IMG/VR virus record: IMGVR_UViG_3300031420_000003
Coordinates: 64,001-128,000 of that record
Length of the DNA: 64,000 bases
Origin: a virus
Reading direction: 5' to 3' (one strand)
In this document: positions 39,159 to 44,571 of the stretch, piece by piece
How positions within the stretch are numbered: position 1 is the stretch's first letter
Layout: each line of letters opens with the position of its first letter
The notes under the pieces: generated by a model
Databases searched by the model: none
The model's input: the letters and a program-made list of their open reading frames with translations, nothing else
What the model was told of the DNA's origin: nothing
Translations under genes and position numbers: made by a program

Positions 39159-39548
39159 ATGACGATATCACTTAAAGAGATAAGTGCCCGTCTTGACCGA
39201 GTCCAAGCAGCAACCGGTGGGTCTGTAGATGGGCAGGTGAACGCCAAAGTTCACAATGCTAACCTACTGGCTGGTCAGCCTGATACGTGGGCCCGTTGTA
39301 ACGGGTCGTGCAGTTGGACGTGTTCATCGGGGTGTAGTCATGGTTGCTCTAGCTGCTCAGGTAGCTGTAGCGGCGTGTGTACAGGTAACTGTTCGGGTTC
39401 GTGTTCTGGTGGTTGTGGGGGAGGATGTTCATCCTCGTGTTCTGGTGGGTGCTCTAGCGGGTGTTCGGGGACTTGCGGTGCAAGCTGTTCAAGTGGCTGT
39501 GCCGGTACCTGTAGCAGCAACTGCACATCAGGCTGCAGCAGCCCTTAG
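39159..39548 (+). CDS. CXXX-repeat Cys/Ser/Gly-rich peptide A, putative radical-SAM target
   Basis: 46-aa leader-like region then 21 Cys in CXXX spacing (one CXX); AAGGAAAGG RBS. Confidence 0.85.
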   Translation: MTISLKEISARLDRVQAATGGSVDGQVNAKVHNANLLAGQPDTWARCNGSCSWTCSSGCSHGCSSCSGSCSGVCTGNCSGSCSGGCGGGCSSSCSGGCSSGCSGTCGASCSSGCAGTCSSNCTSGCSSP

Positions 39549-39556
39549 GAGCAGAG

Positions 39557-39985
39557 ATGGCGATTTCATTAAAAACGGTGCAGGCTCGTGTTCAGAACAT
39601 TGAGAACACTGCACTTAAAACTGAAGCAGGCGTGCAAAACTACATTGCAGGCCGCACTACCAATAATGCTGATTTACTCAACGGCTTCACACCGGCGGCA
39701 CTGCACTGTAATGGCTCTTGTAGCTGGACGTGCGGTAACGGATGTTCCGGTGGCTGTACGGGTAACTGTTCGTCAGGATGTTCTTCATCATGTTCGGGCA
39801 ACTGCTCATCAAGCTGTACAGGCGGTTGTACTGGCAGCTGTGGCGGTAACTGCGGGGGCGGCTGCTCCGGTGGATGTTCTGGTACTTGCTCGGGTAACTG
39901 TTCAGGGAAATGTTCTGGCGGGTGCTCAGGAAGTTGTGGTGCGAGCTGTGGCGGAAGTTGTGGAGCAGGCTGTTCTGGACCGTAG
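39557..39985 (+). CDS. CXXX-repeat Cys/Ser/Gly-rich peptide B, putative radical-SAM target
   Basis: 50-aa leader-like region then 23 perfect CXXX units; AGGAG RBS. Confidence 0.85.
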   Translation: MAISLKTVQARVQNIENTALKTEAGVQNYIAGRTTNNADLLNGFTPAALHCNGSCSWTCGNGCSGGCTGNCSSGCSSSCSGNCSSSCTGGCTGSCGGNCGGGCSGGCSGTCSGNCSGKCSGGCSGSCGASCGGSCGAGCSGP

Positions 39986-39994
39986 GAGTAGGCT

Positions 39995-40204
39995 ATGGCA
40001 GTAAGCTTGAAAGACATCGGTAACCGCGTCTCGAACGTCGAACGCTATATCACCACGGGCCAAGCGGTTGACTATATTGCCAACCGGGGAACGTGTAACA
40101 ACACCAACAACTTGGGTGGGATTCGTGCTGGCGCGTATAACTGCGGCGGAACCTGTAGCTGGAGTAGCTCAGGCGGGGCGAAATCAGTCACCTTCCCGAG
40201 TTAA
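39995..40204 (+). CDS. short paralog C of the CXXX peptides
   Basis: Same MAVSLK..R...E leader and NNTNNLGG motif; core only CGGTCSWS; AGGAG RBS. Confidence 0.75.
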   Translation: MAVSLKDIGNRVSNVERYITTGQAVDYIANRGTCNNTNNLGGIRAGAYNCGGTCSWSSSGGAKSVTFPS

Positions 40205-40216
40205 CAGGGGAACCTA

Positions 40217-42011: not shown

Positions 42012-42023
42012 GGGGAGATAGGG

Positions 42024-43421
42024 ATGGATGCAACCTACCAGATAGTCACCAACCTATCGTGTAACCTCGACTGTGAGTATTGTTACGAGCGTAAATATCC
42101 GCGTAATAACAAAGTCGCTGATGTCGTTGATTTTATTCACGCCTGCTTTAATCGTGACAAACACCGTTTCTATTCTAAAACACAAGGCATCGACGGTATC
42201 ATCATTGATATCATCGGCGGCGAACCGTTCATGCAGCCGAAGCTTTTGAAAGCTGCGTTTGAAACTGCCGAAGAACTGTGTAACCAGTACAATCTGCCCT
42301 ACGTGTTCTCTATCTCCACCAACGGGACGTTGTTTGACAAACCGCTGGCGCTGGAGATTCTGAACCGTTGGAAAGACAAACTGTCTATCGGTGTCTCCAT
42401 CGATGGTCTGCCTGAGACCCACGATAAGTACCGTATCTTTACCACGTCCCGTCAAGGGTCTTACCAAGCAGCGGTCGCCGGTTATAAGCTTCTGCAAGAA
42501 ATCGGCATTCGTGAGATTGGGGTGAAAGCCACCTTCACGAAAGACACGCTGATGCAGTATGGCGCTGGGATGAAGTCGTTGATTGACGTGACCGGGGGCG
42601 GTCGTCTGTACGGTAACGTTGTGTTCGAAGACGTGTTACCGCGCCAGATGGCACTCGAGATTGCCAACCAGTTTATCGAAGTGGCGGAGTATTTCATTGA
42701 GAAGGGTCTGCACTTAGACCAGAACTCTGAAATCGGTCACGTGCTGCCAGACGGCTTGAACGTTGACCAGCTGTGGAACCCGGACTGGCGTGAGAAGCTC
42801 ATCCATGATGACTCTGTGCGCTACGACCCACAACGTCTGCGTCCGCACTGCGGTACCACGGTGTACATGACCTGTCTTGGTTTCGACCGTAACATCTTCG
42901 GTTGTAACCGCTTCATGTCAACCGTGACCACCCGTCAGGCTATCGGTAAGCTTGAAGGGCAAACCATTGTTAACACCGATGGCGGCAAACTGCTGGCAGA
43001 AGTGCAGGAACAGTGGAAGTCGTATCCTGACCAATGTATCGGTTGTCCTGCGAAGCACCTGTGTGCCTCGTGCGTGGCCGCAGCGTACGAAAATGGCGAC
43101 GGTGAAGAAGACGCTCGTAAAGAGTATCACGGCGAACGTCGTCAGTGTGGTTGGACTACCGCGAAGCTCTTAGTGGCTCAGTGGTGGAAACAACGTTTCG
43201 GGTCGTACGAGTCGCAGTACGACAAGTCTGTTTGTAACTGTTATCAGTGCCAGCAGAAGCGCAACTACGCGGTGGAAGAACAACTCTCCCGTGAAGCTGC
43301 TGAACAGCCATTACACGTCACTGCCATCCGTGAGATGACCATGGCTGTGGAACAATCTGACCGCAAGGAACAATTTAAGAATGAAAAGCCTGCTGCTCCA
43401 GAATTTTACGAAGTACGATAG
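42024..43421 (+). CDS. radical SAM/SPASM peptide maturase (CXXX-repeat-target-like)
   Basis: CNLDCEYC, IGGEP, STNGT, SIDGLPETHDKYR; SPASM Cys pattern HCGT..GCNRF..CIGCPAKHLCASC..QC. Confidence 0.9.
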   Translation: MDATYQIVTNLSCNLDCEYCYERKYPRNNKVADVVDFIHACFNRDKHRFYSKTQGIDGIIIDIIGGEPFMQPKLLKAAFETAEELCNQYNLPYVFSISTNGTLFDKPLALEILNRWKDKLSIGVSIDGLPETHDKYRIFTTSRQGSYQAAVAGYKLLQEIGIREIGVKATFTKDTLMQYGAGMKSLIDVTGGGRLYGNVVFEDVLPRQMALEIANQFIEVAEYFIEKGLHLDQNSEIGHVLPDGLNVDQLWNPDWREKLIHDDSVRYDPQRLRPHCGTTVYMTCLGFDRNIFGCNRFMSTVTTRQAIGKLEGQTIVNTDGGKLLAEVQEQWKSYPDQCIGCPAKHLCASCVAAAYENGDGEEDARKEYHGERRQCGWTTAKLLVAQWWKQRFGSYESQYDKSVCNCYQCQQKRNYAVEEQLSREAAEQPLHVTAIREMTMAVEQSDRKEQFKNEKPAAPEFYEVR

Positions 43422-43929
43422 TCGCAAAATCGAAGCGTTCTTACAGCACTACAAGCTGTTCAACATTCACGCTATCGTGCCAGCCGATGACTTTAATGAC
43501 CATTGGCTGCGTCTGATGAACCGCTTTGCGCTGAACGTTATCCTGCCGGTTGCGTGTGTGGAGAATGGCCACAACTCGGTTGCGGAAATTGAAAAGCGTA
43601 ATCCGGGCTTTGAAGCACGCATTTTAGCCGCCCCGGCGTCCAAGCTGACACTGCTGCGTGAATCGACGCAAGAGCGTGGCTCGGATTCTCTGGTGGCCCT
43701 GTGCTTGTCCTTCCCGGATGTGCCGGTGTGGATGGTGCGTAACCCTGAAGGCGCGTGTCATTACTTTGATGACATGATGTTCATGCAGGCGTTCCAAGAA
43801 AATGATCAGGTGTTGCCAAACCTCGTCTACCGTCTGGATCTTCGTATTGACTTTGAACTCATGTCCTATGACATGTTGACCAAAGTTGGATTCGTAGGAG
43901 AGAAAGAATGCTTAGTGCTGACGAGATAA
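43381..43929 (+). CDS. hypothetical protein in the radical SAM cassette
   Basis: 182-aa ORF overlapping both neighbours. Confidence 0.65.
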   Translation: MKSLLLQNFTKYDSRKIEAFLQHYKLFNIHAIVPADDFNDHWLRLMNRFALNVILPVACVENGHNSVAEIEKRNPGFEARILAAPASKLTLLRESTQERGSDSLVALCLSFPDVPVWMVRNPEGACHYFDDMMFMQAFQENDQVLPNLVYRLDLRIDFELMSYDMLTKVGFVGEKECLVLTR

Positions 43930-44549
43930 AAGCTCGGTTTGAAAATGGCGATGGGCAGATTGACCGCACGGGGTTATACTTTGACCCCAATGGCGATGTC
44001 ACGCTGGCCAAGCGTCTACACTACGCACTCTTAGAGGGACTCAGTGAGAAAGATGCACTGCGTCAGTTGCAAGAGCAGGGTCAAACCCAGTTCGAAGCGA
44101 ACTACACCTTACGCCAGACCAAAACGTTTATCAAAGACGTGTTGGGGATTCAGGTGAAGGATTACCTCAAAGAGCTGCAATCGACCAAAGCGTATTGCTA
44201 CACGTTGCTGGCCCAGAAGTTAAAGGCGACCAACGAGGCGTACGCGGCGGCTGTGACCGCAGACATTGCGTATAAAGACCACACCTTCCAGACCGGTGGC
44301 GAGACCCTGACCACACTGGCCGGCTTCGTGCAAACGAACACCGTGCCGGAGTATTGGGTGACGGCCGATAACCTCGCACTGGAAGAGTGGGATGCGAAAG
44401 ACACCGAGCAGCTCTACGCGCTTATCGTTGCTCGCAATGCGCAGCTGCACATTCAGTTGACCGCGTACAAAACCCGTATCCGTGCGTTTGCGGAGCAGGG
44501 AGATTACGCCTCGCTCGATGCGGCGGAGTTTAATCCGTCGGTAGAATAA
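43908..44549 (+). CDS. DUF4376-like phage tail-fibre-associated protein
   Basis: C-terminal IAYKDHTFQT...WVTADN... helical region resembles DUF4376; AGGAG RBS. Confidence 0.6.
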   Translation: MLSADEIKARFENGDGQIDRTGLYFDPNGDVTLAKRLHYALLEGLSEKDALRQLQEQGQTQFEANYTLRQTKTFIKDVLGIQVKDYLKELQSTKAYCYTLLAQKLKATNEAYAAAVTADIAYKDHTFQTGGETLTTLAGFVQTNTVPEYWVTADNLALEEWDAKDTEQLYALIVARNAQLHIQLTAYKTRIRAFAEQGDYASLDAAEFNPSVE

Positions 44550-44553
44550 CTGT

Positions 44554-44571
44554 GGTGCCCTTCGGGGCACC
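44554..44571 (+). terminator. intrinsic terminator closing the fibre/radical SAM operon
   Basis: GGTGCCC-TTCG-GGGCACC followed by CTTTCTTCTTTTT. Confidence 0.85.

Follow-up and report, generated by a model that had tools for sequence, protein, structure and literature searches.

The 64,000-nucleotide stretch of viral DNA analysed here, called the window throughout, comprises bases 64001-128000 of the IMG/VR record IMGVR_UViG_3300031420_000003, a virus record that is complete, measures 248,416 bp and has direct terminal repeats. Behind a set of fibre genes, at 39159-44571, it holds three small open reading frames (ORFs), two of which are ladders of regularly spaced cysteines, followed by two radical SAM (S-adenosylmethionine) enzymes; this run of genes is probably a radical-SAM maturation cassette for cysteine-ladder modules of the tail-fibre apparatus. 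On the comparisons given below it is very likely that the enzymes act on the ladders, and the ladder product would, with a more modest likelihood, be a part of the virion. Over the cassette the DNA is 91% identical to that of the Erwinia phages Wellington and Kwan (genus Wellingtonvirus) and 81% identical to that of pEa_SNUABM_11; by this measure the phage of the window is a Wellingtonvirus-like jumbo phage of the SPN3US-like clade. The genes of the cassette are as follows:

39159..39548, + strand: pepA, 129 residues, a 46-residue N-terminal adapter and an 83-residue cysteine ladder with 21 cysteines; TIGR04114 24.9 bits; phrog_6085
39557..39985, + strand: pepB, 142 residues, a 50-residue adapter and a 92-residue cysteine ladder with 23 cysteines; TIGR04114 25.2 bits
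39995..40204, + strand: pepC, 69 residues, the same adapter and a truncated core; phrog_6085 E 1.3e-24 over profile positions 1-66
40217..41143, + strand: unk308, a 308-residue accessory protein, in the place where lambda and P2 have a fibre-assembly gene; phrog_8030
41127..42011, + strand: rSAM294, a small radical SAM enzyme; Pfam Radical_SAM 55 bits
42024..43421, + strand: rSAM465, a radical SAM/SPASM enzyme and putative cysteine-ladder maturase; TIGR04115 113.7 bits, SPASM seven-cysteine pattern
43381..43929, + strand: unk182, a 182-residue accessory protein; phrog_7988, with a profile that matches 12 jumbo loci only
43908..44549, + strand: a 213-residue DUF4376 protein, last gene of the run; PF14301 28.7 bits against a cut-off of 25, phrog_8169, kept in 12 of 12 related loci
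44554..44571, + strand: a terminator-like hairpin with a TTCG loop, found in a hairpin scan, which ends the run

In pepA 19 of the 20 spacings between consecutive cysteines are CXXX, and in pepB all 22 are; the corresponding CxxxC counts of the cores, 19 and 22, were reached in 0 of 10,000 composition-preserving shuffles each (means 4.9 and 5.3, maxima 11 and 12). The X residues of the ladder are almost exclusively Ser, Gly, Thr and Asn, and Asp and Glu are absent from both cores, in which Lys occurs once at most. The first core cysteine falls at residue 47 in pepA, 51 in pepB and 50 in pepC, and all three have CxGxCSW there; pepC of the window has three cysteines, two of them after the shared N-terminus. 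This recount agrees with a preliminary description made from the letters alone, which had reported three paralogous ORFs with a common N-terminus and a CxGxCSW start, two of them continuing into 21 and 23 cysteines spaced almost throughout as CXXX. It had also listed, downstream, two unassigned proteins of 308 and 182 residues, a CxxxCxxC radical SAM enzyme, a SPASM radical SAM enzyme and a DUF4376-like gene, as well as overlapping genes and a single closing terminator, and the ORFs, cysteine motifs, PF14301 match and closing hairpin all confirm it; the overlaps, in three gene pairs, are 17, 41 and 22 nt, and the remaining gaps 8-12 nt.

Since a purine-rich ribosome-binding stretch precedes each peptide ORF and third codon positions take most of the differences from the orthologous loci L005 and L006 (41 of 53, 69 of 110, 37 of 47 and 79 of 117), the peptide frames are, by their pattern of substitution, genuine coding sequence. 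Both pepA and pepB pass the cut-off of the TIGR04114 target repeat (20 bits), while pepC has no match to it; among PHROG families the peptides match phrog_6085 (function unknown) only, and a sequence search of the PDB gave no match for pepB. A scan of the whole 248,416-bp genome finds no CXXX-ladder ORFs beyond these peptides. The cysteine count of pepA is 21 throughout 12 related jumbo-phage loci of IMG/VR (13 of 13 genomes, the window included), and that of pepB is 20 or 23; pepC has four in SPN3US-type relatives and falls under the four-cysteine threshold of the count in the window, L005 and L006. These counts hold in the related loci although the spacing is sometimes CXX, and in 11 aligned pepB sequences the cysteine columns are invariant where the X residues vary. 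Each of the three peptides pairs with its own counterpart in SPN3US, and the counts are kept across loci; three distinct paralogues are thus, as far as the alignments tell, retained throughout the clade. A trimer prediction for three copies of pepB residues 1-75, run without controls, scored 0.03 and 0.12 against a mark of 0.42 and weighs neither way.

Both enzymes match Pfam Radical_SAM and carry the CxxxCxxC cluster motif, at C23/27/30 in rSAM294 and C13/17/20 in rSAM465, and in a motif scan of the whole genome they are the only ORFs of at least 200 residues with this motif near the N-terminus. Further cysteines of rSAM465 stand at 276, 294, 338, 341, 347, 350 and 375, six of them invariant and one nearly so among 49 relatives; by its arrangement this set of seven is the SPASM pattern. 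The best NCBIfam model for rSAM465 is TIGR04115, 'radical SAM peptide maturase, CXXX-repeat target family' (113.7 bits, E 1.3e-32; protein residues 7-365 on positions 7-341 of the 359 in the profile), with a score under the equivalog cut-off of 350 bits; elsewhere the same model gives 633.2 bits for the enzyme of locus L071 and 162.7 bits for that of L098. PapB (NF047865) comes second at 102.3 bits, below its cut-off of 340. Around 50 bits is all that sulfatase maturase, NirJ and families like them reach, and MoaA, NrdG and QueE much lower than the peptide-maturase families; NrdG, QueE and sulfatase maturase, which the preliminary description had named as the alternative homes for these enzymes, are thus far behind, and a CXXX-repeat target and, below its cut-off, a CXXX-repeat maturase, which it had proposed, are the best matches of the profile searches. 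Among solved structures the closest relative is the thioether synthase CteB (5wgg, E 7.5e-8), and each of the 49 nearest relatives aligned (49/49) matches both TIGR04115 and PapB. On these scores rSAM465 is a SPASM-type peptide or protein maturase of the CXXX-repeat/PapB lineage, and a divergent relative of the TIGR04115 maturase. Its cluster motif begins at residue 13, so that it has no N-terminal extension. On the same strand, roughly 2 to 2.5 kb upstream of it, are the genes of pepA and pepB, as is the case in 12 of 12 related jumbo loci.

The smaller enzyme, rSAM294, has three extra cysteines (241, 244 and 270), invariant in 11 orthologues, which by number is enough for one auxiliary cluster at most. 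Its best NCBIfam families are weak (PapB 50 bits, HxsC 44.6 bits), and so is its match to the second radical SAM enzyme of L088 (E 4e-4). A close paralogy between rSAM294 and rSAM465 was considered and rejected, only the cluster motif being alignable.

The connection to tail fibres comes from the nearest relatives of rSAM465 outside the jumbo clade, at loci L021 to L026 (30-35% identity) and L098. They share a common core, in which a protein ending in a CXXX ladder is followed by a protein of 241-264 residues and then by the SPASM radical SAM enzyme. The ladder-ending proteins that fall into tail-fibre or tail-protein PHROG families are these:

L021: 482 residues; phrog_6722 2e-40
L022: 384 residues; phrog_327 1e-54, phrog_1780
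L024: 451 residues; phrog_2631 3e-32
L025: 401 residues; tail-fibre and minor-tail PHROGs
L098: 338 residues; phrog_6722 4e-24

The cassettes of L021 and L023 follow a lambda-J-like central fibre; that of L022 has a baseplate wedge protein on one side and the tail sheath on the other, and that of L025 is directly upstream of the tail sheath. The peptide family itself recurs in such proteins: positions 8-114, 18-91, 36-124 and 30-124 of phrog_6085 align to the C-termini of P0220, L023, L024 and L025, respectively. In P0220, a repeat-rich protein of 475 residues, the phrog_6085 C-terminus comprises adapter and core, with a junction 43% identical to that of pepB (E 3e-10); P0220 and the 255-residue protein of L023 have no match to a tail PHROG, though both end in the phrog_6085 manner. 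Because phrog_6085, including part of the adapter, aligns to these four C-termini, the adapter of the window is, by homology, fibre-derived, the counterpart of an internal fibre segment. The preliminary description had called the 46-50 residues 'leader-like'; the shared segment stands, the peptide N-terminus looking like a split-off fibre segment rather than the removable leader of a ribosomally synthesised and post-translationally modified peptide (RiPP). An equation of the adapter with the N-terminal domain of about 100 residues found in many non-jumbo CXXX proteins was tried and given up, since only the junction aligns (probability 4) and the N-domains are different.

The accessory genes travel with the ladder and the SPASM enzyme. 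Homologues of unk308 are found by hmmsearch in L023 (E 7e-26), L026 (2e-18), L024 (2e-8), L025 (1e-6), L021 (2.5e-6) and L098 (1e-5), and in hhalign unk308 matches the middle protein of L098 with probability 92.7; the middle protein of L022 is not matched by the unk308 profile. In L022 and L025 the SPASM gene has an rSAM294-like gene as its neighbour. In L024 (6131-8191, on a 284-kb viral contig) an rSAM294-like N-terminal half and the SPASM enzyme are fused into a single protein of 686 residues, which argues that the two enzymes work together. Several database proteins of 634-668 residues (P0009, P0010 and P0013) have a match to rSAM465 that starts only around residue 263-282, and they may likewise be fusions.

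The linkage between enzyme and ladder extends over a wide range of loci. A search of 1.84 billion representative proteins returned 43 relatives of rSAM465 at E up to 1e-30, and IMG/VR holds at least 292, of which the best 80 were used. Neighbouring ORFs were counted as CXXX ORFs when co-directional, no longer than 400 residues, with at least 8 cysteines and at least 5 CxxxC, and within 3 kb of the radical SAM gene. Of the 93 viral loci examined, many of them near-duplicates, 91 have the radical SAM ORF, and 72 of these 91 a CXXX ORF; after dereplication at 70% identity a CXXX ORF is present in 20 of 28 clusters, and four of the remaining eight have longer CXXX-tailed fibre proteins that the filter missed; L021, L022, L024 and L025 are loci that it missed. 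Upstream of the enzyme, 19 of the viral radical SAM loci have a Baseplate_J homologue and 18 a Tail_P2_I or Mu gp48 homologue. In L071 Baseplate_J (Pfam, 1.6e-58) and Mu gp48 precede the cassette, and in L074 Tail_P2_I (Pfam) does; L074, an unrelated 39-kb contig, has between Tail_P2_I and its CXXX cassette a 349-residue protein of phrog_2163 (E 1e-50), the family of the fibre proteins upstream of the cassette in the window. Since the enzyme of L071 scores 633.2 bits, as a full member of TIGR04115, and stands behind Baseplate_J, canonical members of this 'bacterial' family are, judged by gene neighbourhood, present in phage tail modules as well. Among bacterial contigs, taken as one genome per species, the best relative of rSAM465 is 34% identical (L098, from a metagenome-assembled genome (MAG) of Synergistaceae); CXXX ORFs occur in 15 of the first 24 such loci, and several have baseplate neighbours, which suggests that these are prophages.

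Some features of these loci stand apart from the cassette of the window. Directly 5' of the canonical TIGR04115 enzyme, many non-jumbo loci have a helical protein of about 100-110 residues (L071 6582-6911, L036 6577-6933, L074 6616-6909), for which NCBIfam (two members searched) and Pfam (the L071 member) give no match. The L071 ladder protein has a sub-threshold match to TIGR04117, a model with no match in the window. On two viral contigs with a more distant radical SAM enzyme (24% identity), L017 at 4075-4543 and L018 at 6477-6942, there are paired peptides of 68-80 residues with 17-18 cysteines spaced CXXC, another register than the CXXX of the window; those of L018 sit behind large ORFs (691, 374 and 357 residues), with a Baseplate_J-like match at L018 108-800.

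A tblastn search places homologues of rSAM465 in 75 phage records, 62 nearly full length; these are jumbo phages of Erwinia, Salmonella (SPN3US and relatives), Cronobacter (CR5), Escherichia and Proteus. The N-terminal adapter is present in 35 records. The gene order of the cassette is kept in 12 of 12 IMG/VR jumbo loci, a synteny that the preliminary description had left to be looked for. In the SPN3US-like loci L011 (3542-4453) and L016 (3543-4454) an extra gene of the rSAM294 type lies between pepA and pepB, giving three radical SAM genes and three peptides. The peptides are unevenly annotated: those of SPN3US (130, 134 and 68 residues; L003 6094-7123) are all three unannotated, GenBank and RefSeq having there a single ORF, gp166, in another frame; in the Wellington record (L001 12060-13105) pepA is in another frame and pepB has a later start; and in that of pEa_SNUABM_11 (L002 6085-7106) pepB is omitted. 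The SPN3US-type cassette at L007 (4000-9500) is covered over its full length by RNA-seq contigs (18-20 kb, two studies) that are about 98.6% identical to it, and in pepA several of their differences fall on every third base, matching the reading frame.

For unk308 an AlphaFold2 model was obtained with a predicted local distance difference test (pLDDT) score of 83.5, and neither Foldseek against the PDB (best E 0.23) nor a wide VIA-align search (best Z 4.8, covering only helical residues 206-278) matched it to a solved fold; the ESM Atlas model is poor (predicted template modelling score 0.19), with no usable match. Its identity with the helical protein that precedes canonical TIGR04115 enzymes was tested and dropped, hhalign (probability 0.2) indicating no relation. 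The model of unk182 (pLDDT 82.8) resembles part of a beta/alpha barrel, and its Foldseek matches, which are TIM/DHDPS-like, are weak (E about 1e-3, TM about 0.5); a degenerate radical SAM half-barrel was considered and abandoned, hhalign against the SPASM alignment giving a probability of 0.5. For the DUF4376 protein a sequence search of the PDB gave no match.

Upstream of the cassette, and co-directional with it, lie four paralogous fibre/baseplate genes and a hairpin:

24969..28631, + strand: a 1220-residue virion protein, first of the four paralogues; phrog_7557 'virion structural protein' E 0, N-terminus phrog_2163 1.6e-18 and a tail-protein PHROG
28642..32676, + strand: a 1344-residue virion protein, second paralogue; phrog_8078 E 0, phrog_2163 N-domain 6.3e-28, tail-fibre and minor-tail PHROG matches
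32710..32731, + strand: a terminator-like hairpin 5' of the 1695-residue gene; stem of 9 pairs, 7 of them GC, followed by a T-rich tail
32764..37851, + strand: a 1695-residue fibre/baseplate protein; phrog_7449 E 0, phrog_2163 3.6e-43
37890..39095, + strand: vsp401, a 401-residue coiled-coil virion protein (SPN3US gp167, 'virion structural protein 20'); phrog_2163 E 1.3e-99, coiled-coil matches, orthologues in 12 of 12 related loci

The phrog_2163 N-terminal domain common to all four, of which the 1220- and 1344-residue proteins also match tail and tail-fibre PHROGs, corroborates the statement of the preliminary description that the cassette directly follows four fibre genes. The four proteins (24969-39095) resemble a paralogue family with one baseplate anchor and differing distal parts, the 401-residue protein being the short member; in the PDB sequence search the latter has weak matches to trimeric coiled coils only. 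By gene order alone, namely its position upstream of gp167, SPN3US gp168 is the counterpart of the 1695-residue protein, and gp168 is reported to be a tail protein of the baseplate/fibre region (PMC5105663).

Strong terminator-like hairpins at 32710-32731 and 44554-44571 bracket 32764-44549, and the cassette is, on this layout, probably co-transcribed with the four fibre/baseplate paralogues. Weaker terminator-like sites of the + strand lie between them, for example at 38334, 40468 and 43202, the scan total being 17 against 14.9 expected from shuffles. Directly after the cassette comes a GH108-type endolysin (Pfam GH108; 44646-45230), then a tail assembly chaperone (phrog_1158; 45351-46037), and at 46108-46136 a strong two-way terminator-like hairpin of 12 pairs between convergent genes ending near 46037 and 46140. 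In L098 a GH108-type lysin, called from its N-terminal sequence alone, likewise lies 3' of the cassette (3041-3589). Within 39159-46037 no protease, exporter or immunity gene is matched by Pfam, NCBIfam or PHROGs, in accordance with what the preliminary description had noted.

The following mechanism would accommodate these observations. Late in infection, the SPASM enzyme would modify the cysteine ladder in the cytoplasm, with rSAM294, unk308 and unk182 assisting it; the likeliest modification would be serial intramolecular thioether cross-links of the sactionine or ranthionine type, by which the Gly/Ser/Cys-rich stretch would become rigid and protease-resistant, as a rod or a knob. In many phages the outermost part of the side fibres would be such a cysteine-ladder module, modified by a dedicated SPASM enzyme that, in this sub-family, would have a small radical SAM enzyme and a helper of the unk308 type at its side. 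The SPN3US/Wellington clade would have the fibre tip split off as three small proteins, and their N-termini of 46-50 residues would dock them onto the fibre, most plausibly onto the 401-residue coiled-coil protein encoded just upstream. That the chemistry is thioether formation has about an even chance, argued by analogy from the lineage (PapB, CteB) and from the ranthionine links found on a cysteine-rich protein (PMC13692751); thioether cross-linking of a virion fibre tip is, taken overall, favoured rather than assured. The most general form of the proposal, in which the tail fibres of many unrelated phages would end in a cysteine ladder cross-linked by dedicated radical SAM enzymes before assembly, the jumbo clade having three snap-on modules that share a docking adapter, is put forward tentatively, its chances being a little short of even.

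Several observations weigh against a cross-linked fibre tip. The ladders of the window are free-standing, and their attachment to the virion is argued from fused relatives. The type of cross-link cannot be read from PapB, the cores having no Asp or Glu, and no leader-recognition domain (RiPP recognition element, RRE) was found at the N-terminus of rSAM465 or in the models of unk308 and unk182. A Peptidase_G2 autoproteolytic chaperone domain precedes the ladder in P0250, so that in some phages the module may be cleaved off after assembly. The repeat is also not exclusive to fibres: PF27846 (precomputed Pfam matches) is found in large proteins of bacteria, together with Flg_new, bactofilin or peptidoglycan-binding domains. 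The contigs from RNA libraries that cover the SPN3US-type cassette may stem from carried-over phage DNA, and show no transcript ends. Lastly, the main texts of two SPN3US proteome papers are silent on gp161-gp165 and gp167, gp166 was not searched, and the virion tables are in supplements outside the search; the SPN3US peptides being unannotated or in the wrong frame, those proteome searches therefore could not have found them. Among the carriers of PF27846 are proteins with Listeria-Bacteroides repeats, bactofilin proteins of Myxococcota-type MAGs and a peptidoglycan-binding protein (P0151-P0154, P0159, of 1585-1803 residues; P0206; P0254).

If the ladders were instead transient handles for fibre assembly or folding, comparable to intramolecular chaperone domains or Tfa-type chaperones and absent from the mature virion, the radical SAM modification would serve assembly; the Peptidase_G2 domain before the ladder of P0250, the Peptidase_G2 protein directly upstream of the radical SAM gene in L088, the position of the cassette in lambda-like and P2-like relatives, in a slot that also holds fibre-assembly genes, and the tail assembly chaperone just downstream in the window would all fit. 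We consider this unlikely, since the ladder is the C-terminal end of the fibre in L021, L022, L024, L025 and L098, with no intervening protease domain detected, and since a radical modification by two enzymes, together with a strict cysteine count, would be costly for a handle that is discarded. Somewhat less likely still is a free effector, in which the matured proteins would be a bacteriocin-like RiPP or a factor for superinfection exclusion or anti-defence in the manner of the HXS system. The peptides of the window are free-standing with a shared N-terminus, as RiPP precursors are, the pairing of a SPASM with a small radical SAM enzyme recalls HxsB and HxsC (63.5 and 44.6 bits), and the two-enzyme HXS system shows that such matured repeat proteins can be free effectors (PMC13128918). 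These Hxs scores, however, are far under the cut-offs of 370 and 267.9; no peptidoglycan-binding domain (Pfam, NCBIfam), protease or exporter accompanies the peptides, and their N-termini are not signal-like by eye, no signal-peptide predictor having been run. Moreover, the homology of the N-terminus is to internal fibre segments, the cassette constantly keeps its place in the fibre operon, and relatives have fused fibre forms. The preference of the preliminary description for a virion fibre element over a secreted bacteriocin is supported on comparative grounds, by the ladders fused to tail-fibre PHROG proteins and by the tail-fibre slot.

The ladders could also bind metal or Fe-S clusters after the manner of metallothioneins and bear no covalent cross-links, the radical SAM enzymes doing work other than thioether formation. 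With 20-23 cysteines, small neighbouring residues and a strict count (pepA 21 in 13 of 13 genomes) they do resemble a metal-binding stoichiometry, and their cores have no acidic acceptor residues; the obligate pairing with SPASM maturases of a thioether-forming lineage speaks against this, as does the related radical SAM/SPASM enzyme that puts ranthionine cross-links on a cysteine-rich protein (PMC13692751), and we regard it as improbable. A genome paper has called the radical SAM genes metabolism boosters (PMC6614189), and several GenBank records omit the peptides or annotate another frame, as would be expected if the enzymes were auxiliary metabolic genes boosting host metabolism and the cysteine-rich ORFs were unrelated or spurious. 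There is hardly any room for this explanation: the best families are peptide maturases, with MoaA, NrdG and QueE scoring much lower, the peptides have coding-type substitutions, ribosome-binding sites and conservation, and the linkage of radical SAM gene and CXXX ORF recurs in 20 of 28 viral clusters.

The established role of radical SAM/SPASM enzymes is to make small antimicrobial peptides; that they also modify a small number of cellular proteins is a very recent finding. If such enzymes do mature a fibre module, this would be the first case of a virion protein modified post-translationally by radical SAM enzymes and a way of virion maturation that is new in kind, and the bioinformatically defined CXXX-repeat system would acquire a biological role. 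The modification would place a covalent, enzyme-made element in the host-recognition apparatus, with a bearing on fibre stability and on phage host-range engineering; alternative enzyme-stapled tips could govern receptor binding or the ability to withstand harsh environments. A direct test is open in SPN3US, which has amber-mutant genetics and established virion proteomics (PMC5105663, PMC10052503), with the peptides missing or mis-framed in the annotations that the proteomics used.

Among known systems the nearest is the CXXX-repeat radical SAM system (TIGR04115 and TIGR04114), which has been defined bioinformatically as NCBIfam models. The cassette shares with it the radical SAM core with a seven-cysteine SPASM pattern and no N-terminal RRE, and the enzyme adjoins CXXX-repeat proteins. 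It adds a second radical SAM enzyme, unk308 and unk182, its targets are split-off small proteins, and it has no helical protein of about 100 residues before the radical SAM gene, as many canonical viral TIGR04115 loci do; by its score under the equivalog cut-off and by these extra parts the cassette is different from the NCBIfam-defined system. Within the incomplete coverage of our literature search, no paper on TIGR04114, TIGR04115 or CXXX-repeat systems, none linking a SPASM enzyme to a tail fibre, and no functional study was found.

The systems of PapB (freyrasin; NF047865) and CteB (SCIFF, thermocellin; 5wgg, 5why) likewise have SPASM enzymes that act on cysteine repeats. Both enzymes make cysteine thioethers, the substrate motif of PapB being Cys-X3-Asp/Glu with an acidic acceptor. 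The matches of the window are under the cut-offs and the cores have no Asp or Glu, so that rSAM465 falls outside the PapB family; the acceptor must therefore differ from that of PapB. The substrates of the window are also proteins of 129-142 residues with 21-23 cysteines, whereas the products of PapB and CteB are small peptides and not phage parts, and CteB uses an N-terminal RRE, which rSAM465 does not have. PapB and CteB have been named as ranthisynthases (PMC13692751). The same paper describes CrpA/CrpC of Methanococcus voltae, in which a radical SAM/SPASM enzyme installs ranthionine cross-links on a large cysteine-rich repeat protein, and in which, as in the window, two paralogous substrates have a common N-terminus, of about 47 residues (PMC13692751). 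They differ in family (TIGR04463, for which rSAM465 scores 51.5 bits against a cut-off of 525), in a C-X-X-Q/D repeat, in their archaeal cellular context and in an enzyme with an RRE.

HXS (HxsA-D) is an antiphage system with two radical SAM enzymes, whose repeat protein blocks phage DNA entry; as would be the case in the window, a SPASM and a small radical SAM enzyme mature a protein of short tandem repeats, together with a small accessory protein, but the setting is bacterial defence, with a periplasmic effector that has a peptidoglycan-binding domain and His-Xaa-Ser repeats (PMC13128918). The cassette lies outside this system, by the scores of rSAM465 for HxsB and of rSAM294 for HxsC given above and by peptides with neither HXS repeats nor a peptidoglycan-binding domain.

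Phage tails, for their part, have dedicated helpers that mature fibre tips, such as lambda Stf/Tfa, P2 H/G and intramolecular chaperone domains. The cassettes recall them in the unk308-like gene, which directly follows the CXXX-tailed fibre in the slot of a fibre-assembly gene, and in the Peptidase_G2 of P0250 and L088. To our knowledge, the known helpers fold or trimerise fibre tips and make no covalent change; the kit of the window, in contrast, includes radical SAM enzymes.

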